In this document: piece after piece, positions 43,883 through 62,828 of the stretch
How the letters are laid out: each line of letters starts with the position of its first letter
Numbering within the stretch: the first letter of the stretch is position 1
Assembly: GCA_013360585.1 (NCBI GenBank)
Contig: JABWBH010000027.1
Span: 24,657 to 88,656, forward strand
Reading direction: 5' to 3'
Source of the DNA: Phycisphaerae bacterium
GTDB taxonomy: Bacteria > Planctomycetota > Phycisphaerae > UBA1845
Length of the DNA: 64,000 nucleotides
Program-made: the position numbers and the translations under genes
The notes under the pieces: generated by a model
What the model saw: only the letters and a program-made list of their open reading frames with translations
Databases searched by the model: none
Told to the model about the DNA's origin: nothing

Positions 43883-43891
43883 TCCTGGAGG

Positions 43892-45162: not shown

Positions 45163-45346
45163 ACGAGGCTGACCCGCAGCGGTTCAGGTCGGCTTCGCAT
45201 CCTGCCGCGTAGGCCAACCGGGTCGCGCTGCTTGCGACATGCCTTCGCCGGGGACGCCAACGACACGAAAGCGCGACCTTTTTTCAACGGACCGAGACTC
45301 ACGGATAATCCCTGGGAACCCGTGACGGTCCGTTATCCCGGCGCCG

Positions 45347-46538: not shown

Positions 46539-46646
46539 ATGCTTCACGTCGTGAACGTGGAGAGACCCGTTGCATTTTATGAGTCGCTGGGCGTCTCCGC
46601 GACGAAACGGCTGCGAGCGGGGATCGGATGTCGCGGGCAGGGCTGA
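46539..46646 (+). pseudogene. possible N-terminal remnant of a VOC/glyoxalase-family gene
   Basis: The 35-codon ORF MLHVVNVERPVAFYESLGVSATKRL... resembles the first beta-alpha unit of VOC proteins (hHV.l.V.d...s..FY..LG). It then terminates. Confidence 0.3.
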
Positions 46647-46724
46647 CCCGCAGCCGGGCCCACCTTATCCTGGCGGTCGCCTCAAAGCTGACCGCCGCGA
46701 ACCAGCAGGCGATTCTGCTTTACA

Positions 46725-46798
46725 CGCTGTTTCAAAACCCACCTGAAAGCCCTGAGAAGCACGCTTTCTTACGGGCGCGATTCGGTTTTGAAACAGCG
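46725..46798. repeat. Repeat family A copy 2 (inverted relative to copy 1)
   Basis: Same cgctgtttcaaaacc / ggttttgaaacagcg termini. The interior is the reverse complement of the 2283-2356 interior with a few substitutions. Confidence 0.8.
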
Positions 46799-46956
46799 TC
46801 TTATTTGTCTTGCGAGAGGCTGCACGCGCTTCGACCCAGCCTCGTGACGTCGGAGATCGCCGCCGGCGGTCGATTCCGCGGGACGCCAACGCCGCAGCAA
46901 TGCCGAGCGCACAGCGCAAGGGTCACTGTGCAAACGAATACAGCGTCAGGCGGAAC

Positions 46957-46998
46957 AGCCACCGGCGGGACTCGAACCCGCAACCTGCGGTTTACAAA
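46957..46998 (-). tRNA. 3' fragment of a tRNA-Thr(UGU)-like gene (anticodon loop to acceptor end); probable att-site remnant, not an intact tRNA
   Basis: The minus strand reads tttgtaa-accgc-aggtt-gcggg-ttcgagt-cccgc-cggtggc-t. That is an anticodon loop (UGU), a 3' anticodon stem, a variable loop, a perfect T arm and a 3' acceptor strand. The 35 nt upstream cannot form a D arm, a 5' anticodon stem or a 5' acceptor strand. Confidence 0.5.
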
Positions 46999-47222
46999 GC
47001 AGATGGTTCCTGCGCAAGTTCTTGTCATCGGCGAACTTATGTGCGTTTTCCCGAAGGAAAACAAAGTGCGGACTGTCTACCGAAGGGGAGCGGAGTCATT
47101 GCGGACTGGCTGACGGATGAAAAATGACGCCCAATTGACGCCAATTCGTCACCGTATCCCTTTCATGTGGCGGCTTCAAGAGGACAAAACGAGGGACGGG
47201 TTGTGCCTGCCAAGCCTCAGCG

Positions 47223-47846
47223 CTATTCCCCGTTCATTAGCCTCACCGGCAACTGGTTCACCAAATCCCGAAGATTCAGGCCGTGATACTTCACGAGTTT
47301 TTCCGCCCACGCGCCGTCCTCGGGCAACGGAAGCCCCTCGCGCGCGGCAATGCTTTCCAGGTGCGCCGCGATGTCCTTCGACCTCGGCTTACTCAAGTCG
47401 AAACGGACAAAACGCGACAGCAGCACGGGACTCGCCCAGTTTTCCTCCGTCGTGGTTCCGATGAATAAAACATGTTTCGGCAAAGACTCCAGTAGCGACA
47501 ACAAACGGTCGGACGCCCTGCCTGTCAATGTATGAATTTCGTCGAGCATGTACAGCTTTCTGCCCTTGCCGCCGACGCCGTAGTACGGCAGGTGCTCGTA
47601 GAGCTCTCGGAGACGCGACACGTCGCACTCGGCCGACTCAACCTTCACGATGTCGAAGTCGTCGATGCCCCAGTATTGACCGGCGCAGTACGCGAGCGTG
47701 GTCTTGCCGGAGCCCGACGGTCCCGTAAGGAGAAAGGCATGCCCGCTGGCATTGGGCTGGTCGAGATACCACTTCATCTGCGCCACGATGCGGTCCTGGC
47801 CGACGACCTCGTCGAACGTCGTCGGGCGGTACTTCTCAGCAAGCAC
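47223..47846 (-). CDS. minimal clamp-loader-like AAA+ ATPase (RFC small subunit / DnaX-like, no collar domain)
   Basis: AEKYRPTTFDEVVGQ, Walker A GPSGSGKTT, Walker B LYMLDEIH, sensor-1 FIGTTT, and SRF at the RFC SRC position. Only 207 aa. Confidence 0.7.
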   Translation of the reverse strand: MLAEKYRPTTFDEVVGQDRIVAQMKWYLDQPNASGHAFLLTGPSGSGKTTLAYCAGQYWGIDDFDIVKVESAECDVSRLRELYEHLPYYGVGGKGRKLYMLDEIHTLTGRASDRLLSLLESLPKHVLFIGTTTEENWASPVLLSRFVRFDLSKPRSKDIAAHLESIAAREGLPLPEDGAWAEKLVKYHGLNLRDLVNQLPVRLMNGE

Positions 47847-47900
47847 GTTCGGAACGTGGTTGGACGTTCGAGGGCACGCAAGCTCTTGATCGCGAGCGGG

Positions 47901-49853
47901 CTAAGCGTCCAGCCATGAGACCTCCTTCCAGTTTTTGGCCAGGATGACCCGAACGCGCGTTGGCATCAGGAGACCAGCGCGGGCGAGTTGCTTCTCGACC
48001 TTCGCAAAGGCGCGCTCGTCGGTCGCCACGACGAGGACTCGATGAAAACCCTCGCGTAGATTCAAGCTGACATTCTTGACCGCATTCGACGATCCGGTTT
48101 CCACCTCGATTCCGCAGCGTTTCCGACCGCTTTCCGCCAGCAGGTCGACGCTTCCGATACGGCGTGGCGCTTCAATTTTCACGGTGTAGCCTCTTTTTTC
48201 CAAGACTCGCCTGTAGAAGCATTTCCAGTATTCGTGAGGCAGGGACTCCCTCGTTGGGGTGTGCAGGCCGAGGAACTCGCGGGCTTTCGCCGACAGGCGC
48301 AAGACGACCTTGCGCGTCCGCTCGACCGGGACGACGGCCTCGTCGAGCCAGTTCTCGGCGACGAGCTTCTCCTTCACCGCGTGCCCGCGTCCGATGCTCA
48401 CCGACAGCCGCCTGTATCGCTCCTTGACGCCGTCGTCCTTGTGCGTCAACACGTCCTCCAGGAAATCCAGTTCGACCCTGTCCAACGGGTCATCATCAGC
48501 CTGAACCCGCTGAACGCCCCCAAAATCGCGGGATAGAAGCCGTAATGACCCTGAACCCGTCGTCATTGAGGCGAATCGTTGAAGATCGCTATCGCTCACC
48601 GCTCCTTTCTGGATGGGTACAAGAGGGAATCGCAGAAGGAAGGGCAGGCGCCATCGATCCTGGAGCTTGATGATGCCTTGGCCGACAGGCAGTAAGGTCA
48701 GATACCGTCTCTCGTTTTCGTCGAGCAAGCAGAGGCCGGCGGCGCGGTTGATGTCGCTCGGATCTTTCAAGTTGAGGCAGAAGGTCGTGAACGTGTTGCC
48801 CAGCGCGGCGCTGGATATCAGGTGCGGGTGCTGGTCGACGATGATGAAGGCGATGCCGAGTTCGCGGCATTGACGAAGGAGCATGTTCATCAGCGACTCC
48901 TTGGCGCGGTTTTCCTGTCGGTAAAGAACGTGGTGCGCTTCCTCGACCACGATGACGAGCGAAAGCTTCTCACGCGGCGACGATGCCAGCTTCACTTGGT
49001 AGAGCCAGTAGCAGAGCAGGGGCACGAGGAACTTGCGGCCGCCCTGCGAGAGGGCGTCGAGTTCGAGGATCGTCGTTCTTCCGAGGAGCTGCTGCGTGAA
49101 TCGTTGCTGCGGTTCGGAGGTTGACCCCGCTGCGCGAGGCAGGCTCTCCAGCGCCCGTATCGCCGAGGTCTTCCAGGCGCGGACGCGCTCCTTGTCCGGA
49201 ATCTGTTCCAGCTCGCGCGTCGCATCGTCAAGGGACGCTTGTCCCTGTCCCTTGGTGTAAGCGGCGTTGAACGTCTTGTGCAGGAGGCTCTTCGCGCCGT
49301 CGCCGAGCGTGAAGGAATCGGCGATGACGTCGACGAGGTGATTCACGTAGACGCTGGACTCGACGCCTGGTGGTACAAGAAGCGGATCGAACGCAAACGG
49401 AGCCAGCGGGCGCCCGGGCGTGAACACGCCCACGTCGCCTTTCAGCAGCGGAAGCAGATGGCGACCCGTGCGTTTCCAGTCGAGGAAGAGCACGGGAACG
49501 TGGCGGCCGTGAAGCTGTTGAAGCAGATGAAAGACCGCGTTCGTTTTGCCGGCGCCCGAGCGGCCGAACACGGCCAAGTTCTGCAGGAGCTCGCTTTCCG
49601 ATAGAGAAAACGACCACTTCTCTCGTTCGTAGAGCACCGTGCCCAGGCGCAGTGTTCCTCGTGATTTCGAGCGCGGCGGCAGGCTGAGCAGGATTCTACT
49701 CCGGAAGTCGCCGAACACCCTGTAGGCCATGGACGTAATCTGCTGCTCGACGAGTTCACGCATTCCGGCGTCGAGGTCGCGGGTTCGCATCCATTGCTTG
49801 ACTTCGTTGGGCATCAACGGCTGAAGCTTGCGGGCGAGGATTTCGACATTCAT
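47901..49853 (-). CDS. HerA/DUF87-type ATPase fused to a C-terminal wHTH plus PD-(D/E)xK-like nuclease-fold domain
   Basis: Walker A VFGRSGAGKTN, Walker B LVIVVEEAHH and IIVDQHP. The C-terminus has GYTVKIEAPRRIGSVDLLAESGRKRCGIEVETG. This resembles the D...E.E/K core of DUF4143/DUF234-type nuclease folds found behind ATPases. Confidence 0.7.
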   Translation of the reverse strand: MNVEILARKLQPLMPNEVKQWMRTRDLDAGMRELVEQQITSMAYRVFGDFRSRILLSLPPRSKSRGTLRLGTVLYEREKWSFSLSESELLQNLAVFGRSGAGKTNAVFHLLQQLHGRHVPVLFLDWKRTGRHLLPLLKGDVGVFTPGRPLAPFAFDPLLVPPGVESSVYVNHLVDVIADSFTLGDGAKSLLHKTFNAAYTKGQGQASLDDATRELEQIPDKERVRAWKTSAIRALESLPRAAGSTSEPQQRFTQQLLGRTTILELDALSQGGRKFLVPLLCYWLYQVKLASSPREKLSLVIVVEEAHHVLYRQENRAKESLMNMLLRQCRELGIAFIIVDQHPHLISSAALGNTFTTFCLNLKDPSDINRAAGLCLLDENERRYLTLLPVGQGIIKLQDRWRLPFLLRFPLVPIQKGAVSDSDLQRFASMTTGSGSLRLLSRDFGGVQRVQADDDPLDRVELDFLEDVLTHKDDGVKERYRRLSVSIGRGHAVKEKLVAENWLDEAVVPVERTRKVVLRLSAKAREFLGLHTPTRESLPHEYWKCFYRRVLEKRGYTVKIEAPRRIGSVDLLAESGRKRCGIEVETGSSNAVKNVSLNLREGFHRVLVVATDERAFAKVEKQLARAGLLMPTRVRVILAKNWKEVSWLDA

Positions 49854-49934
49854 GGATCTCCGACGCTGCGCGTGATGAAAGGGCTTCGCCTGTCCATCAT
49901 TTGTGTGAAGAAGCAGTGAAAAGCATCAATACCC

Positions 49935-50171
49935 GTGCTCCCTGCATGTCGCATGAATCGGGCAATCGTTGCGGCGTTATCACGTCGCATGAGAGCCATG
50001 CAAGCGAAAATGGCCACGAAGGAAGAGCTGGAAGCGCTCATCGACACCGTCGAGATTCTCAGCAATCCACAGACGATGGAGCAGAGTCGCGGGAGCAAGG
50101 AAGCCATCATGGCCGGCAGGATCAAGCAGGTTCATTCGGTGAAGGACTTGCTGGCCGAGCTTGACGCATGA
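49935..50171 (+). CDS. putative antitoxin (Phd/YefM-like C-terminal region)
   Basis: KEELEALIDTVEILSNPQTMEQSRGSKEAIMAGRIKQVHSVKDL resembles the toxin-binding C-terminal half of Phd/YefM antitoxins. 4-nt overlap with the toxin start. The N-terminal DNA-binding half is not recognisable, so the start is uncertain. Confidence 0.5.
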   Translation: MLPACRMNRAIVAALSRRMRAMQAKMATKEELEALIDTVEILSNPQTMEQSRGSKEAIMAGRIKQVHSVKDLLAELDA

Positions 50172-50520
50172 CGCCGTGGCGTATCCTGCGCACCGAACGA
50201 TTCTTAAAGGCGCTGCGCAAGCACCGGCACAACGGGGAGTTGCTCAAGGCGTTGGACAAGAAGGTCAAACGCCTTGAAGAAGATCCAAAGAGCGTCGGAG
50301 GCATGCGCTCGGGGGAGTGTCACGGAAGTCAATCCACGCGGCTCGTCAGCACATTCCGGCTCGTCTTCAGCGTTTACGCAAAGCCCCACAGGGTTTGCCT
50401 GGAAGCCTCGATCATCGCAAAGGCGTTTACGACAGAGCCGCGACGACTCCCGATGTGGACGGTCACGTCCCGCCCGCAGCCTTGAAGGACGTGTCGCCGC
50501 GCAGCAGCGCTCGACGATGA
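50168..50520 (+). pseudogene. RelE/ParE-family toxin gene with a frameshift near 50405-50410
   Basis: Frame 1 gives MTPWRILRTERFLKAL...FRLVFSVYAKPHRVCLEA. The conserved family C-terminus LDHRKGVYDR is read in the +1 frame (track ORF 50317..50520). The ...gaagcctcgatcatcgc... stretch looks one C short. Confidence 0.55.
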
Positions 50521-50924
50521 AGAAGTGTCAAGAGCTTGTCCTGGAGCGGACGCATGCTATCCTCGCGTTTCAAGGCGAGCTTACGGCGCTCGTCTTCGAT
50601 GTGGAGGAGGCGACGACGTAGCATCTGCCGGTCGTGCCAGTAGCGGTCGTAGTAGAACGGCGGTCGCGGCGAACTCTGAATGATCTCGGTGTCCACGTAG
50701 CACTCCAGCAGGAGAAGCCGACGATCAAGGCTGGCGTGGAGCTTTCGGATGCCGGTAAGCTGGTCGAGCGTGAGGGCGAGCTCGTTGTCCACAACACCGT
50801 CGAGCGTGCCCGCGGGCGCGTCCTTTGGGCGATCCGAGAGCATGGCCTTGGCTCGTTCCTCCAACTTTTCGCCGAAGGTCTTCCTCGGTTTCTGCTCGAT
50901 GACGACGATTCGCTTACGGTGCAT
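50463..50924 (-). CDS. hypothetical protein
   Basis: 153-aa ORF, charged and helical. No family recognised. Confidence 0.4.
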   Translation of the reverse strand: MHRKRIVVIEQKPRKTFGEKLEERAKAMLSDRPKDAPAGTLDGVVDNELALTLDQLTGIRKLHASLDRRLLLLECYVDTEIIQSSPRPPFYYDRYWHDRQMLRRRLLHIEDERRKLALKREDSMRPLQDKLLTLLHRRALLRGDTSFKAAGGT

Positions 50925-50982
50925 GGCGCGGTGCTGAAGCCCGGGTTAATAAGCGTTCGCCCGACTCGCCAAGAGCCTACGA

Positions 50983-51348
50983 TTAGCTCGTTCTCAAATC
51001 ACCGTAGAAACGAAGTCGGTAGCGGTTGCGTTCATAGCCGGGCCAGAGACCTAAGAGCATTGCAGAACAAACAACGATGAACTCCAACTTCCAGTTCTCG
51101 CTCTGATCCAGCGGATGCGGTTGTCTTGAGGAATGGCTTAGGTAGCGAAGGAGGTCGCCTGCATCCGATTCCAGCTGGCACGCTAGGTCAATGTCGCCGA
51201 ACTCGTAGACTCGCCATAGAGATTCCGTGCGTGCCACGGTATACTTGGCTAGCCTGAGGATCGACGGCTCCACGTCCCTCGATAGTCTTGGCATCAAACA
51301 CCCAACATCCATGTCAACCCCGCTCGGTGCCTCAGAATACTTTACCAT
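50983..51348 (-). CDS. hypothetical protein (AT-richer patch)
   Basis: 121-aa ORF. Composition differs from the surrounding DNA. Confidence 0.35.
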   Translation of the reverse strand: MVKYSEAPSGVDMDVGCLMPRLSRDVEPSILRLAKYTVARTESLWRVYEFGDIDLACQLESDAGDLLRYLSHSSRQPHPLDQSENWKLEFIVVCSAMLLGLWPGYERNRYRLRFYGDLRTS

Positions 51349-51469
51349 CCTCCAACAGCGATCCTTGAATACTTAAAGTTTTGCATTACTTGCAAAGTCG
51401 TGCCGGAAATGCATGATTATGAACCCTTGGGACTTCAGACGCCCGCGCCGAGCCATGTAATCGGACGCC

Positions 51470-52579
51470 ATGATGAAAAAAACGAGCGGCTGGGAGCCAA
51501 AAATGCGTCGAGCACTTGACAGGGGGAAGAGTCATGTCAGCGGCATCCGAACCGCGTACCTGAAGGCATACTGCGAGGGTAAAACACTGCCAGTATTGCT
51601 CCCGGTGGCTATATTCGTACTCGCATTAGTTTTGGGCGCCTCATGGCAGGACGACCCATCTCCCGCGCGCACAGCTCACTGCTACTTTACCCTCGTCATC
51701 GCCAGTTCCCTCGAGTTGCTTCGTCAATACTCCGAATACCACCGGCGACGGTCATACAAAGATCTACTACAAGAGCTTAACGCGACGCGGGACGGCATGC
51801 GGTCGCTGCGCGAAGAAGTTCAGCGTCATTTTGCGTCGGTTCTGCAGCGTGACAAGTACCTGCAGGCTGAGGCACGGGATTTTCGGCGTGCCGCCCAAAC
51901 TATTCGCGAAGGTACGCATGCTGGAGTTTCGCCATATTCAGTGCTGAGCGACTTGAAAGACTCAAAGAAACGCCGCAATTTGCTTAGGTCTCAAGTCCAG
52001 GAACTTCAAATTAGATTGGAATTAAACAACCCAGGTATCCGGTTTCGCGTTTCCCTCTGGAATTTTGATCCTGTTCGCGGAAGACTTGTCCACGAATACA
52101 GTTGGTCTATCGACCAAGATGCGCCTTCTGTGTTTGCAGATGATCCGGCTGCCGAGGATATCCAGGTCGTTGGCACTGGCTCGCCGATGTCATTCCTTGC
52201 TACGAGCTGGCGAGGCCAATGGTATTCAATCCCAAACACGGCCGACCTAACTGTTACAACACCATACACACCACCCTCTGATCCACATGCGAGGGAAGAG
52301 ATTAAATCTATTTTTTGTCATAAGGTAGGATCCACAAGGGATCACCTGTTTGGCATAATCGCAGTTTTTGCAGATAGGGCCGGTTTTTTCGACGAGGATT
52401 CCAGCTCTAACTTCGTAGAGCTCAAGAACGTTGTCGAGGGCGCTTGTATTGCATTGGAGCACGAATATTCAAAACTGGAGCATTGTGACGCAGTTGTAGG
52501 ACTCGTCGCCTCCACGACCACTAGACGGTATGCTGTGATCGCACATTACGAGCTCAGAGGAAATGGAGAGGGAGTTTGA
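51470..52579 (+). CDS. hypothetical membrane protein: 2 TM helices + coiled coil + GAF-like C-terminal domain
   Basis: 369 aa. TM helices LPVLLPVAIFVLALVLGA and YFTLVIASSLELL. The GAF guess rests on the C-terminal pattern HLFGIIAVFADRAGFFDEDSSSNFVELKNVVEGACIALE. AT-richer than the flanks. Confidence 0.45.
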   Translation: MMKKTSGWEPKMRRALDRGKSHVSGIRTAYLKAYCEGKTLPVLLPVAIFVLALVLGASWQDDPSPARTAHCYFTLVIASSLELLRQYSEYHRRRSYKDLLQELNATRDGMRSLREEVQRHFASVLQRDKYLQAEARDFRRAAQTIREGTHAGVSPYSVLSDLKDSKKRRNLLRSQVQELQIRLELNNPGIRFRVSLWNFDPVRGRLVHEYSWSIDQDAPSVFADDPAAEDIQVVGTGSPMSFLATSWRGQWYSIPNTADLTVTTPYTPPSDPHAREEIKSIFCHKVGSTRDHLFGIIAVFADRAGFFDEDSSSNFVELKNVVEGACIALEHEYSKLEHCDAVVGLVASTTTRRYAVIAHYELRGNGEGV

Positions 52580-52797
52580 CTTGACGTTCGAGCGCCCGAT
52601 CGGTCATCGGGCATGAATGGCGCTGGATCACTATTCTCGGTTTCGCTGGGTGCCGCGACAGCAGCGTACGTGCGGGCTACAGCCCGTGGCTCAGACGGCG
52701 CTCCAAGTACGGGAATGACGACTTAGCGTCACATTGATAATCAGACGGTTTGTTGCTCGTTGTTTTGACATAGCTGTTCTGTAAAGAGTACGGGAAC

Positions 52798-53025
52798 ATG
52801 GACGAAAGGACGACGCTGATAAGACAGGCGGACGCTATCCGCGCCAATCTGCGAGGATCGCAGCTTGAGGCGGAGCATTACGTCAAGGTTCGCTTCAGTG
52901 GATATGGGTGGGATGATTTAGTCAATAGGAGTTTGGACTGGTTATACAAGAGTCCATGCCCTGGGCCGAACCGATTTGAGAAAGCGCTGCCGACAAAATG
53001 GCTTTTCGGTGGATTTCTGTTATGA
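52798..53025 (+). CDS. small hypothetical protein
   Basis: 75-aa ORF in the AT-richer patch. No other support. Confidence 0.25.
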   Translation: MDERTTLIRQADAIRANLRGSQLEAEHYVKVRFSGYGWDDLVNRSLDWLYKSPCPGPNRFEKALPTKWLFGGFLL

Positions 53026-53056
53026 GCCACGTTGTGTATACTAGTTAAGTCGACCA

Positions 53057-53665
53057 TCAGCGAGATTCTCGTATGCTACACGCGTACCCTGCGTGGAGCA
53101 TTAACTCTCGGATCGTCTGGCGCGCGCTTGCAACGCAATAGCTTGGATACCTCTCTCCGGGCTCCTGAACAGGCTCAACCAATCCAACCTTTCGCAGCCA
53201 GCGCATGACGTCTCTTGCGTTGTTCCCTGACATCCGCAGCGTCGGATCGAGCGCCCGGGCGCGTCGCTTGGCGGCGGCGGGCTGCATCGGATAAGCTAAC
53301 GCCTTTATGATCGCCGAGCGGTGCCGGTGACAGACCTGCCCGTACAAGTCCCAATCCACGTCGGGAACGAACGGCGCGGGCACCTCTTTTTCTTGATCGC
53401 GAAAGTATCGTCGCCGGCATACCAACCCGAGGCGACTGAGCCAGTAGACGCGATTGCGCTGGGCGGCGTCGTTCAAGCAGGTCGCCAGCTTTTTCAACGT
53501 GAACTCCCAGAAGACGTAGGAGCACGCGTCGAGAGACAGCCCGGTTCGCTTCGACATCTGATTCGCCGTTAACGGCTGCGAAAAGTTCAAGAGAACAAGT
53601 TTCCGCCTCGGACTCTTCAGGATCCAGGGATAGACTTTGGAGAGATTCATGGCGCGAGGAGGCAT
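53057..53665 (-). CDS. putative winged-helix DNA-binding protein
   Basis: 202 aa. Two wHTH-like segments (LLNFSQPLTANQMSKRTGLSLDACSYVFWEF...; ...NNARDVMRWLRKVGLVEPV). Confidence 0.45.
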   Translation of the reverse strand: MPPRAMNLSKVYPWILKSPRRKLVLLNFSQPLTANQMSKRTGLSLDACSYVFWEFTLKKLATCLNDAAQRNRVYWLSRLGLVCRRRYFRDQEKEVPAPFVPDVDWDLYGQVCHRHRSAIIKALAYPMQPAAAKRRARALDPTLRMSGNNARDVMRWLRKVGLVEPVQEPGERYPSYCVASARQTIRELMLHAGYACSIRESR

Positions 53666-53740
53666 CGCTATTACTTACGGCTTCAACCGCGTAGGCTTTG
53701 CGAAGTTGGCGGTTTCAACCCCTGGCAGGTGGCACCGAAT

Positions 53741-54058
53741 TCAGAACCAGCTCGCAAAGAGCGGACTTTCACCTGAATCGAGTTGCCGCCTCACGATAGC
53801 GAGCGCTGTTCGGTATTCAGCCATGTAGCCGCGATGATGCGCTCGAAGCCTTATCGCTCGCTCGACGGCGGGACGTGGGTTGCAGCGATAGCAGGACGCA
53901 ATCCACTCGCACCCGTTCTCCCTGCCTTCCTTCGCATCTTTCAGAATCCTCGCGGCCGTCGTGGGCGTGGCGTAGCCGAGCGATTCGGCGATGATGTGCG
54001 CGCAGATGCGCGGATACCGCTTCAGGTAATCGTCGGGCGAATCGAGACGATCGGTCAT
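53741..54058 (-). CDS. small hypothetical protein (third of three coupled genes)
   Basis: Internal ATG 54058 (MTDRLDSPDDYLKRYP...) overlaps the upstream stop by 4 nt. Confidence 0.45.
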   Translation of the reverse strand: MTDRLDSPDDYLKRYPRICAHIIAESLGYATPTTAARILKDAKEGRENGCEWIASCYRCNPRPAVERAIRLRAHHRGYMAEYRTALAIVRRQLDSGESPLFASWF

Positions 54059-54372
54059 GGCGCCGCCCTCGCCTCCGCGGGAGGAGATAGCGCGTCGTAA
54101 ACCCGCACGCGATGGAATCCGTCGTTGTCGATCCAAACTTCGACGGGCACATCGAGGTTGGAGACGGTGTTGGTCTCGATCACGCGCTCCAGCACTTCGT
54201 CGAGCGCAACGTGCTCGGGCCTACGCCCTGGAAACACATCCCGGATCAACTCGCTCCAGCGATCTTCAGGCAGGCTGGCCAACGCATCGACGATGCAGGT
54301 CGGCCTGTCACTCCGTTGCGGATTCTCAGGATCTCCGTAGAAGTCGGGCGAGAAGGAATGCGCGTACGTCAT
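54055..54372 (-). CDS. small hypothetical protein (second of three coupled genes)
   Basis: Internal ATG 54372 (MTYAHSFSPDFYGDPENP...) overlaps the upstream stop by 4 nt. Confidence 0.45.
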   Translation of the reverse strand: MTYAHSFSPDFYGDPENPQRSDRPTCIVDALASLPEDRWSELIRDVFPGRRPEHVALDEVLERVIETNTVSNLDVPVEVWIDNDGFHRVRVYDALSPPAEARAAP

Positions 54373-54716
54373 GGAAGCCAGCCTCGCTGCCGTGCCTCCT
54401 CGAAAAGCTCCTGACGAATCAGCGTGTCGATCGTCGAGACGTGAACGTCGCCGTACTCCCCTTCCGTGCAGGCGACCGAGAAGCAGTGGCAGAAACGATA
54501 ATGCCGCAATTCGGGTTCGCGCGGCGCTTCTTCCTGCTGAACATGGCCGTAGATCGGAAAGCCGTAGCCGCTGTCCCTTTTGAAATAGTCGCCGGGCTTG
54601 ATCGCAGCCTGCCACGGCTGCACGCGGGCATCCGCGGCCGTCCGCGCTTCCTCCATGCGTTGGAGCATCTCCTCCAGAGAGTCAAATCCTTCGATTTTCA
54701 CGTCGAGGAAAGGCAT
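54369..54716 (-). CDS. small hypothetical protein (first of three coupled genes)
   Basis: 115-aa ORF MPFLDVKIEGFDSLEEMLQRMEE..., divergent from the methyltransferase operon. Confidence 0.45.
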   Translation of the reverse strand: MPFLDVKIEGFDSLEEMLQRMEEARTAADARVQPWQAAIKPGDYFKRDSGYGFPIYGHVQQEEAPREPELRHYRFCHCFSVACTEGEYGDVHVSTIDTLIRQELFEEARQRGWLP

Positions 54717-54855
54717 TCAAGCTATAAAAGGCTTCCGCTGACTTGCGGATAACCGGCTCACGAACTTTCTTGCTCCACGACGCTGTTTCTCGCAGGGGCG
54801 CAACAGAGCAAGCCCTTTAAGCCTGGGCGCACGCGGCGCCAGAGGAGGTGCGACC

Positions 54856-55098
54856 ATGACTTATCACCAAGAGGAAGACGAGGACGACGAGGAATCACAG
54901 AAGCGCAGCGCTGAGCGGTGCGCACGATGCCGCCGTTCGATTGAGCCGGGCGCGGACGTGATCGGCTTGCAGGACGGCGTTTTAGGACCGCGAGGGTTCA
55001 TTCCCCTCGAAGAGCACCGTTTTTTCTGCAACGAAGACTGCCTGCGGGCTGACTTTGACCACGGCGACGTGGAGAAGCTGCCGCGGCGGATCCCTTGA
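54856..55098 (+). CDS. small acidic protein with a Cys4 zinc-ribbon-like motif
   Basis: 80 aa with CARCRRS...FFCNEDC. SD gaggagg upstream. The stop overlaps the methyltransferase start. Confidence 0.45.
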   Translation: MTYHQEEDEDDEESQKRSAERCARCRRSIEPGADVIGLQDGVLGPRGFIPLEEHRFFCNEDCLRADFDHGDVEKLPRRIP

Positions 55099-56537
55099 CC
55101 GCCCAGGAAGACTCCGGCTCCGGCGCCAGCGAGGTGCCGGGGTTGGACAGCATCGAGTGTCGTGACGCGCTGTCAGGGCTTCGTGCCCTGCCGGAGGCGT
55201 GCGTGGACTGCGTTCTCACCTCGCCGCCGTATTGGAGCATGCGCGATTATCATCTGGACCCTGTCATCTGGCCGGACGGCAAGGTCAACGTTCTGGGTTT
55301 GGAGGATTCGCCCGAGGACTACGTCGAGCACCTGTGCAGCGTTCTCGATGAAATCTCCCGTGTCCTGAAACCCACCGGCACGGTGTGGATCAACCTCGGA
55401 GACACCTATGCCGGAAGCTGGGGCAATTACGCGCCCCGCAGGCCCAAAGACCAGCCGTTTGCCGAGACGCCGTCGCACTGGCCGCGGAAAGGCCTGATTC
55501 CGCCGTCGGTGCGTCCACCGGCGTCCAAACCGCAACGAGTTCCTGATAAATCCCTGTGCCTGATCCCCATGCGCTTCGCCCTGGCGATGCTGGAACGCGG
55601 CTGGATTCTGCGCAACGACCTCTGCTGGCACAAGCCGAATCACATGCCGGCCAGCGTTAAAGACCGGTTCACCCCCTCCTGGGAGCATCTGTTCCTGTTC
55701 GTCAAAAGCCCAAGGTACTATTTCGACCTGGACGCGGTCAGGCAGCCGCACAAGTGTCTGGCGGAAGTGGCCGGACGTTGGAAAGACAAGATCACGCCGC
55801 GCGTCAATTATCATCCCAAGGGCGTGCGACGTCCGCCGCATCCCGGCGAACCCGGCTCCATGCACCCTCGTGGCAAGAACCCTGGCGATTTCTGGGAGAT
55901 TCCCGCGGAGACCCGCACGCTCGGCGCGATTCTCGGCGTGCGCGGCGCGGTCAAGGTGCCCGGGGGCAGCGGCTGGACCGGCCATGCAGAAGGCGGCGAG
56001 GCCCGGATTCTGCACGAGCAGGATCCGCGCTGGCTCTCTCCCTTGGGGAAGAACCCCGGAGATTGCTGGAGCATCTGCACGACGCCCTCTTCGCTGGGGC
56101 ATTTTGCTGTCTACCCCGAAGCGCTTTGTGAGCGGCCGATCAAGGCCGGATGTCCGGCACAGGTGTGCCTCAAGTGCGGCATGCCCTGGCTGATTCGCAG
56201 CCGGGGGGGCGGTTCGGCCTTCAACATCCGTGTCCGCGACGTCAAGACCGGGAAGCTGAAAGCTCCTGACCGGCGAGCCTCGGCGCAAGAGGTCGCCGCA
56301 TATGATGAGCGCGCCTACCGCCTTGAAGCCAAGGAAACACGAGTGCTCGGTTGTTCGTGCAACGCCGGCTTCGGCGCAGGTATCGTGTTGGATCCGTTCA
56401 TCGGTTCAGGCACGACCGCGGTGGTGGCCTTGCGTTTGGGCCGGCACTTCATCGGCTTCGAGGCCAATCCCGATTACGTGCAGATGGCCCGTCAGCGGCT
56501 GGCGAAGGCCGCAGCGCGTGAGGGCGGTGCGACGTGA
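55095..56537 (+). CDS. DNA methyltransferase, N4/N6 (beta class), SPPY motif (likely N4-cytosine type)
   Basis: VDCVLTSPPYW (motif IV) near the N-terminus and LDPFIGSGTTAVVA (motif I) near the C-terminus, with a large insertion between them. TTG start in the track; the start is uncertain. Confidence 0.8.
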   Translation: MTAQEDSGSGASEVPGLDSIECRDALSGLRALPEACVDCVLTSPPYWSMRDYHLDPVIWPDGKVNVLGLEDSPEDYVEHLCSVLDEISRVLKPTGTVWINLGDTYAGSWGNYAPRRPKDQPFAETPSHWPRKGLIPPSVRPPASKPQRVPDKSLCLIPMRFALAMLERGWILRNDLCWHKPNHMPASVKDRFTPSWEHLFLFVKSPRYYFDLDAVRQPHKCLAEVAGRWKDKITPRVNYHPKGVRRPPHPGEPGSMHPRGKNPGDFWEIPAETRTLGAILGVRGAVKVPGGSGWTGHAEGGEARILHEQDPRWLSPLGKNPGDCWSICTTPSSLGHFAVYPEALCERPIKAGCPAQVCLKCGMPWLIRSRGGGSAFNIRVRDVKTGKLKAPDRRASAQEVAAYDERAYRLEAKETRVLGCSCNAGFGAGIVLDPFIGSGTTAVVALRLGRHFIGFEANPDYVQMARQRLAKAAAREGGAT

Positions 56538-57928
56538 AGCCGTGTTTTGACCGCGACGGCCTGCAGTTGTTCCGCGGCGACTGTCTCGAGCTCATGCAGG
56601 AAATGCCCGCGGACAGCGTGGACACGATCATCACCGACCCGCCCTACGGTCTGGGCTTCATGGGCAAAGCCTGGGACACGATTGCCGACCGCAGGTTTGC
56701 GATGCCGGGTCTGGAGCGCAAAAAACCCTGGCCGCGGCTGGCCACAAGGGACGTTCGAAAGCGGTTGGCGGAAAGCAGTCTTCAGGAGTTTCATCGGCGA
56801 TGGAGTCAGGCCGCGCTGCGGGTGGCCAAGCCGGGCGCCTTGCTGCTGGCATTCGGCAGCACGCGGACCTTTCATCGCCTGGCGTGTGGTCTGGAAGACG
56901 CCGGCTGGCAGATTCGAGATTGCTTCATGTGGCTCTACGGCTGCGGGTTCCCCAAGTCGCTCAACATCGGCAAGGCGATGAGCAAGGCGAAGGAGGGAGA
57001 GTCGAAATCGTGGGCAGGCTGGGGCACGGGCCTCAAGCCCGCGTGGGAGCCGATCATCCTGGCGATGAAGCCGCTGGAGGGCACGTTCGCCGAGAACGCG
57101 GCAAGGCACGGTCTCTCCGGTTTGAACATCGACGCGGCGAGGATTCAAGGCGCGCCGGGCGAAGGCTGCTGGGGCTCCAGCAACGCGACCTGTCCGCAAG
57201 GCTCGACGTTCAATGGTTCCCCGAAGGCCGCAGAATACCGCAGCGAACGGCACGCCCGAGGGCGCTGGCCGGCCAATCTGCTCTTCACGCATCATCTGGA
57301 TTGTCAGTATCTCGGCGTCGCTCGAATGAAGGGCAGCGCCTCCTCAAAAGCGTTTCACAAGGCATACCCTGGAAAGTCCGTGACGCGGTTCCTGCGCGGC
57401 GATTCGCATCCCGGGAATCAGCACGCCGACCGCGACGGGCTGGAAACCCTCGAATCCTGGGATTGTCATCCCGAGTGTCCCGTGCGGATGCTCGACGAGC
57501 GAAGCGGGATGCGAAAGAGCGGCAGCCGCCTCACGGGCAACGAGCCCTCGCTCCCCGCGAAGCACGTCTACGGCGCCATGAAGCATCCCCGCAAGTGGGA
57601 GCCGTATCTGGACCGAGGCGGCGCGTCGCGCTTCTTCTACTGCTCGAAAGCCCCCCGAGCAGAACGCAACCTCGGCCTTTCAGGCGAAGACAATGATCAC
57701 CCGACCGTCAAGCCGCTGGGGCTGATGGAGTATCTCTGCCGGCTCACGGCCACGCCGTCAGGCGGGTTGATCCTCGATCCGTTCGCGGGCACCGGGACGA
57801 CTCTGCTCGCGGCAAGGAACGTCGGCCGACCTTGCGTGGGTATCGAGATTGAGGCGCAGTACGTCGAGATCGCCAAGAAGCGGCTCGAAGTGGTTGAACG
57901 TCCTGCGCTGAGTTCGTCCGCCGCTTGA
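56534..57928 (+). CDS. DNA methyltransferase, N4/N6 (beta class), DPPY motif (likely N6-adenine type)
   Basis: VDTIITDPPYG and LDPFAGTGTTLLAA. 4-nt overlap with the preceding methyltransferase. Confidence 0.8.
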   Translation: MKPCFDRDGLQLFRGDCLELMQEMPADSVDTIITDPPYGLGFMGKAWDTIADRRFAMPGLERKKPWPRLATRDVRKRLAESSLQEFHRRWSQAALRVAKPGALLLAFGSTRTFHRLACGLEDAGWQIRDCFMWLYGCGFPKSLNIGKAMSKAKEGESKSWAGWGTGLKPAWEPIILAMKPLEGTFAENAARHGLSGLNIDAARIQGAPGEGCWGSSNATCPQGSTFNGSPKAAEYRSERHARGRWPANLLFTHHLDCQYLGVARMKGSASSKAFHKAYPGKSVTRFLRGDSHPGNQHADRDGLETLESWDCHPECPVRMLDERSGMRKSGSRLTGNEPSLPAKHVYGAMKHPRKWEPYLDRGGASRFFYCSKAPRAERNLGLSGEDNDHPTVKPLGLMEYLCRLTATPSGGLILDPFAGTGTTLLAARNVGRPCVGIEIEAQYVEIAKKRLEVVERPALSSSAA

Positions 57929-58104
57929 CGGTTGCGCAGGACATCCCGACATTCTCAAGACGTCGCAGGAGCGAGGGTCGAACCTCGGAGAGCTCCAGGA
58001 GATAAAGCCGATGCGATTTCAAGGTTGACTCTCAGTTCGCACGGCGCGTCGGCAGCGGCGTTTCAAGGGACGGGTCCGCTGCAGTAATCGCCCAAAGCGG
58101 GGAG

Positions 58105-58881
58105 TCACCGCGCGACGGTGCGCCACTCGTACCAGCCGACGAGATCGAGTTCCCGCGCCCAAGCGTCCGCGGTCTCACGGTCGCCGGAGGCGCCACGGTC
58201 GGTCGCATTGAGTTCGTTCAAAGTCGAAGCGAGCTTCGGGAATCCCGCGCGCTCGTAGGGCTCCGCCAGGGCGGGTTCATCGAGGAATTCCGCCAAATCG
58301 TAGGCTGACGCAGCTTTCATGGCGTTCGACGCGCGATAAACCAGTGGCGGGGTCGCGTTCGCCAAATCGCTTCGTAACGCCTCGCGGGCTCTCCCGAAGA
58401 CGGCGCGCACGCCCTTGCGAACCTCGGGCTGAAGCCGGGGATGCTCCAGTAACAGCCGTCGGTGAATCCACGGATCTGCCGGCAGGTTTACAAGTTCGCG
58501 CAGCAGCCCATCGAGCAAGATGGGAAAAGCGTTCCGCCAGAGATCCGCAAGCACAGGACTGACCTGTTGAAGTTCGAGGCCCATGCTTCCGAAGGCTCGT
58601 GCCCGCGTGGCTTTCGTGGTCTGGATCAGGTATCGCGCCTCCGATGTGCCGAGAAATCGCTGAATATGGATCGCCTGATGGGCGACCGCGTAATCCGGGC
58701 TCGGAAAGAGCGGATTGTATCTGAGAACGACCTCTTCGGATTCCGGCTGGAGCAGCGAACGACCCACCTCGCTCGTGGAGGTGTAAACCAACTGATCGGG
58801 AAGCAGTCTGATACTCACGCCGATCGCTTGCTGCGCACGCTCGACCACTTCCCTCGTCACCTTCTTCAGCTTCGTCGTCAT
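58105..58881 (-). CDS. hypothetical protein
   Basis: Start set at ATG 58881 (MTTKLKKVTREVVE...) so it does not overlap the divergent DUF2958 gene. 258 aa, helical. Confidence 0.45.
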   Translation of the reverse strand: MTTKLKKVTREVVERAQQAIGVSIRLLPDQLVYTSTSEVGRSLLQPESEEVVLRYNPLFPSPDYAVAHQAIHIQRFLGTSEARYLIQTTKATRARAFGSMGLELQQVSPVLADLWRNAFPILLDGLLRELVNLPADPWIHRRLLLEHPRLQPEVRKGVRAVFGRAREALRSDLANATPPLVYRASNAMKAASAYDLAEFLDEPALAEPYERAGFPKLASTLNELNATDRGASGDRETADAWARELDLVGWYEWRTVAR

Positions 58882-58900
58882 CCTCGAAACAGGGAAGCGC

Positions 58901-59317
58901 ATGGATATAAACTTTTCGCAGCGGAAGGACACAGCGACACCTCAGGCGAACGTTTATGAGGCCGCTTGGCGTTCCGCGGGCATGTGGAATGAGCCCTCGG
59001 AACTGGAGCTTCGGGCGCTGCCGGCAATCGGCACGAACGAGGAAGTCGACTGGAAAGAGGTGCTTATCAGGATGCACTTCTTTATCGGCGGCTGTGATTG
59101 GTACGTCGCCGAGTACTCGCCCGCGGACAGGATCTTCTACGGCTACGCGATTCTCAGCAACGACCTGGACAATGCCGAGTGGGGCTACATGAGCCTCGAC
59201 GAAATGCGAGAAATTCACGTCCGAGGGTTTGAGATCGACCGCGACTTGCATTGGGAGGAGCGGAAGGCATCGGAGATTGAGAAGATTGCGGCCGCGTATC
59301 GGACACATGGCAGATAG
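58901..59317 (+). CDS. DUF2958 family protein (plasmid/ICE-associated)
   Basis: RMHFFIGGCDWYVAEYSPADRIFYGYAIL...EWGYMSLDEMREI...FEIDRDLHWE fits my recollection of the DUF2958 signature (FF.....W.W...E.D.....FG......ELGY.SL.EL...ERD). Confidence 0.65.
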   Translation: MDINFSQRKDTATPQANVYEAAWRSAGMWNEPSELELRALPAIGTNEEVDWKEVLIRMHFFIGGCDWYVAEYSPADRIFYGYAILSNDLDNAEWGYMSLDEMREIHVRGFEIDRDLHWEERKASEIEKIAAAYRTHGR

Positions 59318-59328
59318 CACGACTGTCG

Positions 59329-60105
59329 TCACTCAATACAACTTCTTACGTGCCGGGCAAGAACCTCCGCAAGTCTGGCGACATCGCGCGGAGTCAGGAC
59401 AATGATCTCATGCAAGACGAATGGCGCCAGTGCCTTCGGATTCAGAACCCATACTTCAATACCCCGAGGCTGCTTTTCGACGAACCATCCTGGGTAGAGG
59501 ACAACAGGACGCAACGGGACTCTCCTTTCCAAGATATTCGCCAACAAGTCACATATGAATGCCGCCGCTGCCCGCGCCTGGACTACTGGATCCCTATCAG
59601 GCCGAAGCCCGTTGACCAAGACACGCTCGCCGTCGTACTTGACGACCGGGCTCCCTTGCGCAAGTTTGCTCACTGCCTTGGTCTCAATGACGAATAAGCC
59701 CGCCGGTCCAATGAGCACATGGTCCACATTGAAGCCCTTGCCCGGGACATCGTGGAAGACCTCGTAGCCGAAGGCTCTCATTCGCTCCAGCGTCTGCCCG
59801 ACGCTTTGCTCGCCTTCCATGCCGAGGCGAAGTCGCTTGGTCTCCTTCAGGCCGCGATAGACCTGAATCACGGCCAGGACAACGATCGGAATCGCGATCG
59901 CCGTCGCGTATCCGGGGGCCGGAGTCGTCGGTACGAGAAAGTGCCACCACGACGTTAACATCGCGACAAGCAAGAGTGCCGCCACAAGCGCCCACATCAT
60001 GCATTTTGTTACGAGAACTTCGTAAACATCATGGAGCAGCGTTTCGCCTGCTTGCGGTAGGGGCGGGTCTTTCAACGGCGATCGTCGGGCGGAAGGTTTT
60101 CTCAT
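59329..60105 (-). CDS. NERD (nuclease-related) domain protein with two N-terminal TM helices
   Basis: GMEGEQSVGQTLERMRAFGYEVFHDVPGKGFNVDHVLIGPAGLFVIETK is the NERD core. It is preceded by the hydrophobic segments MMWALVAALLLVAML and AIAIPIVVLAVI. Confidence 0.75.
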   Translation of the reverse strand: MRKPSARRSPLKDPPLPQAGETLLHDVYEVLVTKCMMWALVAALLLVAMLTSWWHFLVPTTPAPGYATAIAIPIVVLAVIQVYRGLKETKRLRLGMEGEQSVGQTLERMRAFGYEVFHDVPGKGFNVDHVLIGPAGLFVIETKAVSKLAQGSPVVKYDGERVLVNGLRPDRDPVVQARAAAAFICDLLANILERRVPLRPVVLYPGWFVEKQPRGIEVWVLNPKALAPFVLHEIIVLTPRDVARLAEVLARHVRSCIE

Positions 60106-60246
60106 GCGGGCATGCTATCAAGCACATGATCGGAGGGCGAGGCCCGTGGACGCTTCACCGAGAGTAGATCGGAATGCCGGTTCGCAATGCCTTCGCTGCG
60201 ATGACACCATCGACGCAAGGTTTATAAACCAGCACCTCTTCTACCT

Positions 60247-60504
60247 TTGAGCATGGCGACGACAATCACGAACTCTTCGAAGAATAAGGTGCCTCAGAGC
60301 GCTTGGATTTCCATGAACCCCAAGACGCGCGAACTCATTCTTTTGATTTGGAAGACGAAGGCCGGCTCAATCTCATTCAGGTCGAAGAATTCCCATGAAG
60401 CTCGGATTCGCCAGAAGGCTTTGCGTCGAGCGCGGGCTCGCGGCTACATTAAGTTCAAATCCACGCAGCGCCAAGGCGTTGCGGTTACGGTAACGCTGCG
60501 CTGA
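60247..60504 (+). CDS. small basic hypothetical protein
   Basis: 85-aa ORF in the AT-richer region upstream of the recombinase. No other support. Confidence 0.25.
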   Translation: MSMATTITNSSKNKVPQSAWISMNPKTRELILLIWKTKAGSISFRSKNSHEARIRQKALRRARARGYIKFKSTQRQGVAVTVTLR

Positions 60505-60727
60505 GGCTCCGGAACTGGACTTATATTCATTTCTTCTTTGTTTCCGCTTTGGCAAATCACAGTAAGCAAATCCACTTCTGGCAGGGCTGAATATCCCTCA
60601 GCTTCGAGAAACATGGCTTACGCCTATAGGTGTGAACGAAACCGGTCGCGTCTTGCCGGGAGCGTTGCACCCTTTAGTTCCTGGCGTTAGGAGTAAAGTT
60701 TAAATAATTGCGTTTACTCGGGACTGC

Positions 60728-61945
60728 ATGACATGGAGGACGCGATACGAAAATGGAAAGGATGAACTGCTCGTAGACAACGCTATCTGCAAGGCCAATC
60801 GTAAAGTCTTCGCTGAGCTGTTCGAGTTCGAGGAATACAAGCTCAAGCGCAGAAACCAACTACCGAACCTCGATGACGCTTGCTATAAAACTCTCTACGG
60901 ATACATCCATAAACTCCGTAATGCAAACACGTGGTTTGAGAACAAGCCTTGGATAGCAATAACGAAGGACGACATCAAGAGAGTCTACGACGCTTTGGAA
61001 GACGGAAAGATCAAGAATGCCCGAGGGCAGCCGATTGCCGACCGGGCAAGCTATTACAACAAGATATTCAAAAGCAAGCCATTCCGAATCGTCCGCAAAG
61101 ATGTTCTGGCCAAAGAGGTGATCGAGTTCTACACCCGACGTAAAGAGGAAGTACGATTTGTCACCGAAGACACCTTCCGGAAAATGGTTTCGGTGCTGTC
61201 GAAACCGCAGCATCTCCTGCTGTTCTGGCTCGCGTGGGATCTCGGCGAGAACGTCGATGCTCTGCTCAAATTGACGAAGCGGGATTTCACGCGGCAGAAG
61301 AATCCGCACACGCACGAACCGGAGTATCTCGTCAATCTCCAAAAGGCCAAGCTGAAGCGCAGCCGGCAGGCGCGCACCGAGCCCACGCTGTACGCCGAAA
61401 CCGTGCGATACGCGGACATCGTTCTTGAACGTCTGAAAGCGGACGAGCCGCTGTTCACCTTTGGCTATCGCCAAGCCTTGAAGCTCATGCACTCCGCCGT
61501 CGAGAAAACAGGGGCCACGTGCCTCCCGTCAAACGGGCCCGTGCGCTGGAAAGACCTACGGTCGGGCATGGCCTGTCACCTCCTCAAGAACGGCTGGACA
61601 CGCGAGGAAGTGGACGCCCGCCTCGGACACACGCCGAACTCCTCGGCGTTGAACGCGTATCTCAACTACCTGGCGATTGACCGGCAGAAGCCGAAGAAGC
61701 GGCTGTTCGACTCTTCTCTTGAACACGTGCAAAGCGAGCTGGAAGAAGCAAGGCGGCGGGAGAAGCTTCACGGCGAGCGCCTCGAACGCCAGGCCGAAGA
61801 GAACCGCGAGCTGCGGGATGAACTGAAGGAGACCCAGACGACCGTCCGCGACATGAAAAAACTCATCGAGATCGCGATGCGGAAGCTGGATGCGCCGGGG
61901 GACGGGAGGCCGGTGACACGAGCGAAAGGAACGGCGCGCTCCTGA
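60728..61945 (+). CDS. tyrosine recombinase / phage-type integrase (divergent) with C-terminal coiled-coil tail
   Basis: WKDLRSGMACHLLKNGWTREEVDARLGHTPNSSALNAYLNY matches the R...LGH...Y end of the integrase catalytic domain. The first catalytic Arg region (LAWDLGENVDALLKL) is atypical. Confidence 0.6.
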   Translation: MTWRTRYENGKDELLVDNAICKANRKVFAELFEFEEYKLKRRNQLPNLDDACYKTLYGYIHKLRNANTWFENKPWIAITKDDIKRVYDALEDGKIKNARGQPIADRASYYNKIFKSKPFRIVRKDVLAKEVIEFYTRRKEEVRFVTEDTFRKMVSVLSKPQHLLLFWLAWDLGENVDALLKLTKRDFTRQKNPHTHEPEYLVNLQKAKLKRSRQARTEPTLYAETVRYADIVLERLKADEPLFTFGYRQALKLMHSAVEKTGATCLPSNGPVRWKDLRSGMACHLLKNGWTREEVDARLGHTPNSSALNAYLNYLAIDRQKPKKRLFDSSLEHVQSELEEARRREKLHGERLERQAEENRELRDELKETQTTVRDMKKLIEIAMRKLDAPGDGRPVTRAKGTARS

Positions 61946-62306
61946 AAACGGCCCAGCGGGACAGGCCAAGGCTCAAATAGGGCGGAAGCATGACGCGCCG
62001 CATGACCAGCAAAGCCAACCCCGAAGACGCAAGGCGCCAACCACGCAACTCCCAGAAACGCCGAAACGAAGCGGTTCGCCGGCTGCTCCTGGCGGCGCTC
62101 TCGCTGTCCAGAAGTCGTAAACATGAAACGACCGTGCAACGTTGAGACGCCCGACCCGTTGAGCAGCCTCCAGAAAAACCGCCCCCACCGGCGCCCCCTA
62201 AAGCCGAGCCCGATACCAGTGGTCGGGATCCAGAAAAGCACAAGCGACAGACCCATCATTGTATCATTGTGGACGTCTGCTTCAGCAAAAATGGCGATTC
62301 TCCGAT

Positions 62307-62828
62307 TCATCGGTGTCGCCCTCTTATTCCTATGTAGACAGCGATGCTCCCATTATCGGAATCACAGATTGCGATATCTAGTGGGTACGGACGCTCCGGT
62401 GGGCAAGCATCCAGTTGTGCGTACGACTTCGGCCTGACCCTCAGGCCGGCGAGGCTTTCAGAAAACGCAGATTGACGCGGCTCCCACTCATTCAGTTGGT
62501 TCTTAATACTAGGGTTTGCGTTCAAGAACGTTGTTAGCTCAGCCTGTCCGGGTAGATAGAAGTCCCATACCAAACCCAAGCGGTACTTAGGCATCCGTTG
62601 ACACACTATATGAGTCTGCTGCGGCGGCACAATCCCATCTTTGGCCATCATTATTTGATGGCGTGAGAGATCATGGTATAGAGGGCGGTTGTCAATAATA
62701 AGAAACCCCATGAAAACGGCGAGAGCCATTACAGAAGCAGCGAGGAGGCTCTTGATGGACTTACGGATCAGTGTTGCCGATGTCATTAGAGCCTTCCTCG
62801 CAGTCAGTATTACCGCTGTCATTATCAT
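62307..62828 (-). CDS. putative immunity protein for the upstream RHS toxin (membrane-anchored)
   Basis: It lies immediately downstream of the RHS C-terminal domain in the same orientation and is AT-rich. TM helix ALAVFMGFLII. The real start may be an internal Met (62786 or 62729), because 62828 overlaps the RHS stop by 68 nt. Confidence 0.45.
   Translation of the reverse strand: MIMTAVILTARKALMTSATLIRKSIKSLLAASVMALAVFMGFLIIDNRPLYHDLSRHQIMMAKDGIVPPQQTHIVCQRMPKYRLGLVWDFYLPGQAELTTFLNANPSIKNQLNEWEPRQSAFSESLAGLRVRPKSYAQLDACPPERPYPLDIAICDSDNGSIAVYIGIRGRHR

Follow-up and report, generated by a model that had tools for sequence, protein, structure and literature searches.

We analysed a 64,000-nt stretch (the window, C60:24657-88656) of the 84-contig draft genome of a Phycisphaerae bacterium (G000). 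The DNA from window position 46954 to the end of contig C60 is very probably the attR-proximal arm of one large genomic island of the int1 type, inserted in the tRNA-Thr(UGU) gene; its other attachment (att) site, attL, lies on contig C6. The original prediction had proposed a unit of ~15 kb bounded by a tRNA fragment on one side and by a 405-aa recombinase (int2) on the other. Its view of the region as integrated accessory DNA held. Both arms of the island are present in G000 and in the related genome G004 and both are absent from G001, G002, G003 and 35 further relatives. The proposed boundary did not hold: int2 is an internal and not a boundary enzyme, and the probable cognate integrase, int1, sits beside the tRNA gene on C6.

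Site-specific recombination would have placed the island in the 3′ part of the tRNA-Thr(UGU) gene, with int1 as the cognate enzyme. This protein is predicted to be a canonical tyrosine integrase with an arm-binding N-terminal domain and is encoded, together with an Xis-like HTH_17 gene, beside the reconstituted tRNA (attL); its catalytic role in the integration is inferred. Crossover would take place within a 45-nt identity beginning in the anticodon loop, and the displaced 3′ part of the chromosomal tRNA would stay behind as the fragment seen in the window (attR). Island DNA (the P arm and genes for an AAA+ ATPase and a HerA-type ATPase) would lie on one side of this fragment, and chromosomal DNA (the B′ flank, a repeat designated family A and an amidohydrolase gene) on the other. 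Contig C60 ends within an RHS gene 120 nt beyond the window end; the short-read assembly would have broken there, inside the island at an RHS repeat, and this break would be the reason why no tRNA is visible in the window. The genes for int2, DNA methylases, a NERD protein and HerA would be internal cargo swapped between strains.

The tRNA-Thr scar in the window

ARAGORN detected no tRNA gene in the whole 64-kb window, in agreement with the original prediction. The minus strand of 46957-46998 reads TTTGTAAACCGCAGGTTGCGGGTTCGAGTCCCGCCGGTGGCT and is identical at 42 of 42 nt to the 3′ portion of tRNA-Thr(UGU) that begins in the anticodon loop and ends with the discriminator base. It covers the UGU-bearing anticodon loop, the 3′ strand of the anticodon stem, the variable loop, the complete T arm and the 3′ strand of the acceptor stem; the bases preceding it are unable to form the remainder of a tRNA. 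The fragment, earlier described as tRNA-Thr-like, is a true attachment-site scar. Identity with the tRNA locus runs 3 nt beyond the 42-mer (GTT), which gives an attR core of 45 nt at 46954..46998 (minus strand), an exact repeat of C6:96765-96809. An Rfam search at E<=1 over window positions 44000-64000 and over loci of genome G019 returned nothing and missed this known fragment too, so it is insensitive to half-tRNAs.

When the whole genome was searched for the 42-mer with up to 8 mismatches allowed, exactly two copies were found, the window fragment and the only tRNA-Thr(UGU) gene of G000 (C6:96734-96806). Across 80 genomes of the family the fragment sequence occurs in one or two copies per genome; thus it is not a dispersed repeat.

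On its island side the core is followed by the P arm of the attachment site (46999..47222). On the other side lies the B′ flank (46813..46953), chromosomal DNA directly downstream of the core. These 141 nt between the core and the family A repeat were unmatched in 40 relatives and are confined to this species, where they are contiguous and 98% identical in the closed contig described below (locus L059) and in the contigs L060, L061 and L063.

Farther out are a copy of the family A repeat (46719..46812) and, outside the island, a 35-codon open reading frame (ORF) at 46539..46643 (plus strand). The repeat named in the original prediction proved to be real and dispersed, with copies on C28, C6, C60, C66 and in relatives. 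It is ~95-135 nt long with internal inverted repeats and marks the breakpoint of synteny between G000 and G002; an inverted copy lies at the matching breakpoint on C66 (~29790-29880). This suggests that rearrangements or assembly joins occur at family A repeats. As to the ORF, described earlier as a truncated VOC-like gene, its shortness stands; it is conserved and equally short in G002. Its VOC identity cannot be verified: the translation has a VOC-like N-terminal motif and no Pfam match.

Intact tRNA-Thr gene and integrase int1 on contig C6

The original prediction expected the full tRNA past the integrase side of its unit, and an intact copy does exist on the attL side of the island, on C6. 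Three explanations had been offered for not seeing it: decay, a tandem or nested insertion, or extension past the window. Extension past the window is the one that stood. Decay is not supported, both att copies being perfect 45-mers.

The int1 gene directly adjoins the intact tRNA-Thr(UGU) gene. Its product matches Phage_integrase (E 3.6e-20), has a weak Arm-DNA-bind_4 match (E 3.2e-4, under the Pfam cut-off) and matches XerA/XerC/XerD-type families of NCBIfam; a gene for a 94-aa HTH_17 protein of the Xis/AlpA kind comes after it. As called, the int1 frame (493-494 aa; C6:96663-98147, L003 6664-8148) extends over the att core and over all of the tRNA gene, opposite in strand. Since the frame overlaps the core, integration would alter the last ~50 codons of int1. 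The long tail is probably non-functional read-through, and in that case the frame across the core says nothing on the att partner.

Both arms have in common a 29-nt block (28/29 identical, E 3e-10) in the same orientation. It is located 83-111 nt beyond the core on C6 (P′ arm) and 116-144 nt inside the island in the window (P arm), where it reads GGCGTCAATTGGGCGTCATTTTTCATCCG on the minus strand of 47114-47142. The blocks are likely to be arm-type integrase binding sites of the P and P′ arms of one attP.

Attachment-site junctions in a closed genome and other strains

A search with the AAA protein led to a closed reference, the 3.82-Mb contig JABTTX010000001.1 (JABTTX01), which is 98-98.6% identical to G000 in flanking DNA and thus belongs to the same species. 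Here the P arm of the window, the 45-nt core and the C6-type P′ arm with int1 are contiguous, without the 5′ half of the tRNA (L053/L057); the junction reads ...GGAACCATCTGC | core | TGCGTAAGTCC... The same joint was found in a 2.2-kb Logan contig of an unrelated run (L055) at 97.6-99.6% identity. The closed contig also has attL (tRNA 5′ half, core, P′ and int1) at ~2,071,875 (L065) and attR (P, core and B′) at ~1,917,182 (L059), the latter followed by B′, the family A repeat and the amidohydrolase gene as in the window. Exact sequences are available for three junction types.

The three core copies on JABTTX01 (attL, the internal P-core-P′ and attR) have one orientation and bound two related elements in tandem, one of ~65 kb and one of ~90 kb. 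Both end in the arrangement seen in the window, with RHS array, small ORF, int2, NERD, methylases, HerA, AAA and P; in the closed contig DUF2958 lies between NERD and the methylases. Contig C6 matches the attL side of the closed contig (98.6% over 21 kb) and the window matches its attR side (98.1%). An operon of the type II secretion system (T2SS) type lies inside the second element (E2), and C6 ends at the same operon. We had at one point taken the T2SS-like genes of C6 for core chromosome, with the island on C6 ending at ~114 kb; this was dropped when the operon was found inside E2. Each att junction type is also present in independent short-read contigs. In other strains the short-read contigs stop at the core or in the P arm (L060, L061 and L064), as would be expected of a repeated att region. 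From the closed strain we infer that C6 and C60 are physically continuous in G000.

Several observations weigh against a single island joining these two contigs. In G000 itself attL and attR fall on separate contigs, no overlap between contig ends joins C6 to C60 (the right end of C60 resembles only RHS repeats on C17), and continuity is taken from another strain. The closed reference has many split genes, suggesting indel errors, and a near-identical duplicate of the T2SS operon 1.85 Mb away, so that it may contain a long-range misassembly. No genome searched has a clean empty attB (tRNA followed by B′), G002 having an insertion sequence (IS) and rearrangements at tRNA-Thr. Finally, the flanks of G004 outside both att sites are unlike those of G000, which means that the neighbourhood has been rearranged in the genus.

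Such rearrangements could be read in another way: the att sites of G000 may no longer bound one segment, an int1-mediated or homologous inversion or translocation having split the arms and left the window as an orphaned half. At the family A repeat G002 joins the flank of the window to DNA like that of C66, G004 joins it to DNA like that of C72, the tRNA-Thr segment of G002 is inverted relative to C6, and the G000 assembly offers no join of its own. However, in four same-species assemblies either the B′ flank at attR or the tRNA flank at attL is unchanged, every core of the closed assembly lies in direct orientation on one contig, and the contig break in G000 is accounted for by the RHS repeat. 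We consider a split of this kind quite improbable, and an intact island with its arms on C6 and C60 remains the preferred explanation.

Distribution among relatives

G002, at 93-95% identity the nearest of the other species, shares synteny with G000 over window positions 27389-46779, and the synteny ends inside the family A repeat. Beyond 46779, G002 continues with unrelated chromosome, DNA that in G000 is found on C66. Its tRNA-Thr gene has no adjoining integrase and an IS there instead. The comparison with an empty site suggested in the original prediction was therefore successful in part: the island is absent from the closest species, but a clean attB was found neither in G002 nor in G004.

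In G004 the homology to the window sets in precisely at the 3′ end of the tRNA (46957) and extends as far as 62146, interrupted by an IS; an intact tRNA with int1 is also present on a separate contig. The island ends are 97% identical between G000 and G004, the interiors 71-86% and the flanking chromosome ~89-91%. The starts of G004 contigs C47 and C68 (L027 1-130 and L028 1-130) are both within an IS and have a common 18-nt terminal sequence reading outward, so one IS copy interrupts the island arm of G004. Another contig of this genome, C43, begins inside an IS630-like transposase gene. On C47 (L027 6490-6520) the sequence TGGTTTGTAACCCG comes after the fragment; it looks like a second, degenerate piece of an anticodon loop and could be the scar of an older integration.

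The same arrangement was seen in G039, from another family of the order (L033, L035). An intact tRNA-Thr(UGU) gene with an overlapping integrase lies there 3.7 kb from a contig end, and the exact 42-nt fragment is on another contig, with an integrase of its own 500 nt away, beside an efflux operon of the Cus/Acr type.

The second recombinase, int2

The gene int2 (60728..61945, plus strand) encodes a divergent protein of 405 aa with the tyrosine-recombinase fold. The divergent integrase called at this position in the original prediction was borne out by a Phage_integrase match under the Pfam cut-off (E 4.8e-4) and by structure. The AlphaFold model (pLDDT 83) matches XerA, Cre, IntI4, Tn1549 Int, XerH and lambda Int, and the top 50 matches in the Protein Data Bank are all tyrosine recombinases with probability 1.00. 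The model predicts a two-domain Cre/Xer-like fold with a long C-terminal helix of ~65 residues.

Residues R278, H301 and Y311 are invariant in the family and occupy, in the alignment, the positions of Arg II, His III and the catalytic Tyr. In a profile alignment of low probability, the counterpart of Arg I of int1 is Asn175 in int2, and that of His II is Lys275. The full catalytic set Arg-Lys-His-Arg-His/Trp-Tyr was not found in int2, an indication, not proof, that the enzyme deviates from the canonical catalytic residues.

The int2 family contains at least 463 proteins (55-70% identity) from Phycisphaerae, other Planctomycetota and one metagenome-assembled genome (MAG) of Sumerlaeota. One distant member (L048) sits 63 nt after a tRNA-Ser gene. 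Several members (L045, L050 and L046) adjoin RHS or other giant secreted-protein genes.

Given these properties, one may ask if 46957-62146 is a self-contained element of ~15 kb moved by int2, with a tRNA-like attP remnant at one end and a non-tRNA site beside the RHS array. G000 and G004 have exactly this unit in common, with different DNA beyond both ends; syntenic modules of int2, methylase and HerA genes without the Thr core exist in another genus (G019:C40) and on other contigs (L046); and the family is large and conserved, with a member directly after a tRNA-Ser. Yet in two independent assemblies the P arm beside the fragment leads across the core into the int1 P′ arm, hence the fragment belongs to the int1 site. 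The distance from int2 to the core is 13.7 kb, no direct or inverted repeats of at least 10 nt were found around the unit (46999-62146), the int2 homologues of three genomes (L028 in G004, L029/L030 in G019, and L045) have no adjoining tRNA, and an Asn is aligned with the first catalytic Arg. The idea of a separate 15-kb element that has its own integrase and occupies a non-tRNA site was dropped on finding the P-core-P′ junction, and we now see very little chance that it is correct.

In the closed genome of the same species, 60-75 kb separate int2 from the far att site of each element. The int2 module may in the past have had a nested origin inside the int1-type island, which would be compatible with the explanation that we prefer. 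It is a rather unlikely suggestion, though not a negligible one, that the 46999-62146 module is a nested, separately mobile unit driven by a widespread, conserved recombinase family without the first catalytic arginine. Such a unit may habitually sit at the edge of methylase/HerA cargo, beside polymorphic-toxin arrays.

Cargo genes and the mosaic interior

The genes nearest to the P arm encode a small, clamp-loader-like AAA+ ATPase (47223..47846, minus strand; Pfam AAA and DNA_pol3_delta2, and the N-terminal region of NCBIfam dnaX) and a HerA/FtsK-type ATPase of 650 aa identified by profile matches (DUF87; 47901..49853, minus strand). Of the relaxase, coupling protein and type IV secretion set that would mark a conjugative element, the sole sign in the DNA read is weak VirB4/TraC/CedD-like similarity of the latter in NCBIfam, a scope that leaves ~85 kb of the interiors of the two reference elements outside. 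Then comes an AT-richer variable block (50964..53202) with an orphan protein of 369 aa, in place of which other strains of the species have an unrelated block of ~4 kb. Small ORFs are present between the HerA ATPase and the methyltransferases. One of them opens the segment 54856..57928 (plus strand), in which it is followed by two N6/N4 DNA methyltransferase genes (55095-57928; Pfam N6_N4_Mtase, E 5e-45 and 7e-31; PADLOC MTase_II). A NERD nuclease-related protein (Pfam NERD, E 1e-14) is encoded at 59329..60105 (minus strand), and int2 is followed by a conserved 51-aa ORF (61990..62145, plus strand), at the end of which the G004 homology stops (62146). PADLOC models recognized no complete known defence system in this set, only MTase_II and weak HerA/mad8 matches.

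The GC fraction alternates between 0.47 and 0.65 along the stretch (genome mean 0.655), and the mosaic interior that the original prediction read from this alternation is confirmed by exchange of blocks between strains. The block from HerA through to the core is 97.5-99.5% identical in G004, JABTTX01, L063 and L064; within the species, the block of HerA, AAA, core and flank is 98-99.5% identical. The methylase-NERD-int2 block is only 77-83% identical within the species, and its methyltransferase part only 77%. With blocks at 99.5%, at 77-83% or without any likeness among strains of one species, the island interior is a mosaic.

In a contig of a sister strain from the European Nucleotide Archive (L045, positions 1-120), the DNA 225 nt upstream of int2 is fused to the 3′ end of a GrpE-like gene. 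This 3′ end is 96.7% identical to C6:101362-101481, and a gene of this kind adjoins int1. The fusion shows recombination between the cargo of the two arms in another strain.

On C6 the HTH_17 gene is followed by a VWA, Hsp70-like, GrpE-like and DUF87 module and then by low-GC cargo. In C6:98228-104819 (L003 8226-14820) the conserved module next to int1 has, besides HTH_17 and two small ORFs, genes for VWA, an Hsp70-like ATPase, a GrpE-like protein and a DUF87/HerA-like ATPase. The module recurs in G004 and in both elements of the closed genome, and may be a functional system of its own. The low-GC block includes a gene for a 1,015-aa STAND-type NTPase (AAA_16/NACHT/NB-ARC with TPR) at C6:109759-112806 (L004 4760-7807), which is absent at the matching position of the closed reference.

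The T2SS-type operon of the island (C6:113921-119348; L069, L070) has genes for secretin, E, F, pseudopilins and an L-like protein. The near-identical second copy in the closed genome has a flank that C30 and C78 of G000 match at 99.8-100%. The G000 assembly lacks the rest of the operon (gspD/E/F).

The RHS locus at the right end

The RHS locus of the original prediction was confirmed. An RHS array unit, still within the large island, occupies 62155..64000 (minus strand) and runs off the contig. It has three parts, all on the minus strand: a short array-associated piece (62155-62235), an ORF for a putative immunity protein of 173 aa (62307-62828) and the 3′ end of an RHS gene, toxin tip included (62761-64000). 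The RHS gene aligns with a 2,526-aa RHS protein (E 6e-41). Its core ends in WVDPLGL, a DPxGL motif, after which come a variable tip of ~185 aa and the small downstream ORF.

Relation to known elements

Tandem accretion and composite islands at tRNA genes are already well known, and in this respect the stretch is real but ordinary. The composite island CGI48 in tRNA-Trp of Shewanella putrefaciens is an example of a tRNA-targeting island (PMC8978831). The present island resembles such lambda/P4-type islands in its insertion in the 3′ part of a tRNA with an identity block from the anticodon loop to the 3′ end, in the integrase and small HTH (Xis-like) genes beside the reconstituted tRNA, in the perfect direct repeat at the far end, in its variable lower-GC cargo and in being missing from the sister species. 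Unlike those examples, it belongs to a Phycisphaerae MAG, is very large (65-90 kb in the closed relative) and encodes a second, non-canonical recombinase besides an RHS array and a T2SS-type operon.

Site-specific accretion in tandem arrays at one att site has been reviewed for integrative and conjugative elements and integrative and mobilizable elements (PMC5704250), and phage-ICE tandems have been described (PMC13651849). The closed genome, with its order tRNA-core-E1-core-E2-core, follows this scheme, the internal P-core-P′ being the signature of shared-att accretion. Its two elements are related copies with diverged interiors, in contrast to a helper and a hitch-hiker. Unlike accretion arrays, G000 has two cores only and so may hold a single element.

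As in defence islands, genes for methyltransferases, NERD and a HerA-type ATPase with its small AAA+ partner are clustered with small ORFs that look like toxin-antitoxin genes, and whole blocks are replaced between strains; the difference is in the lack of a complete system recognized by the PADLOC models.

An att scar without a tRNA, an apparent anomaly, is very probably explained by a textbook tRNA-targeted island cut in two by short-read assembly. The full att system (B, core, P, P′ and B′) given here for a large island of an uncultured Phycisphaerae lineage is useful for MAG annotation and for recognizing C6, C60 and RHS contigs as belonging together. If the int2 module does prove to be nested and separately mobile, it would not be passive cargo but a type of integrative or cassette-exchange element that has yet to be described; the conserved atypical recombinase of the island may merit separate study. 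In this group a single tRNA gene can harbour islands of 65-90 kb in tandem, and their interiors are swapped block by block among strains.

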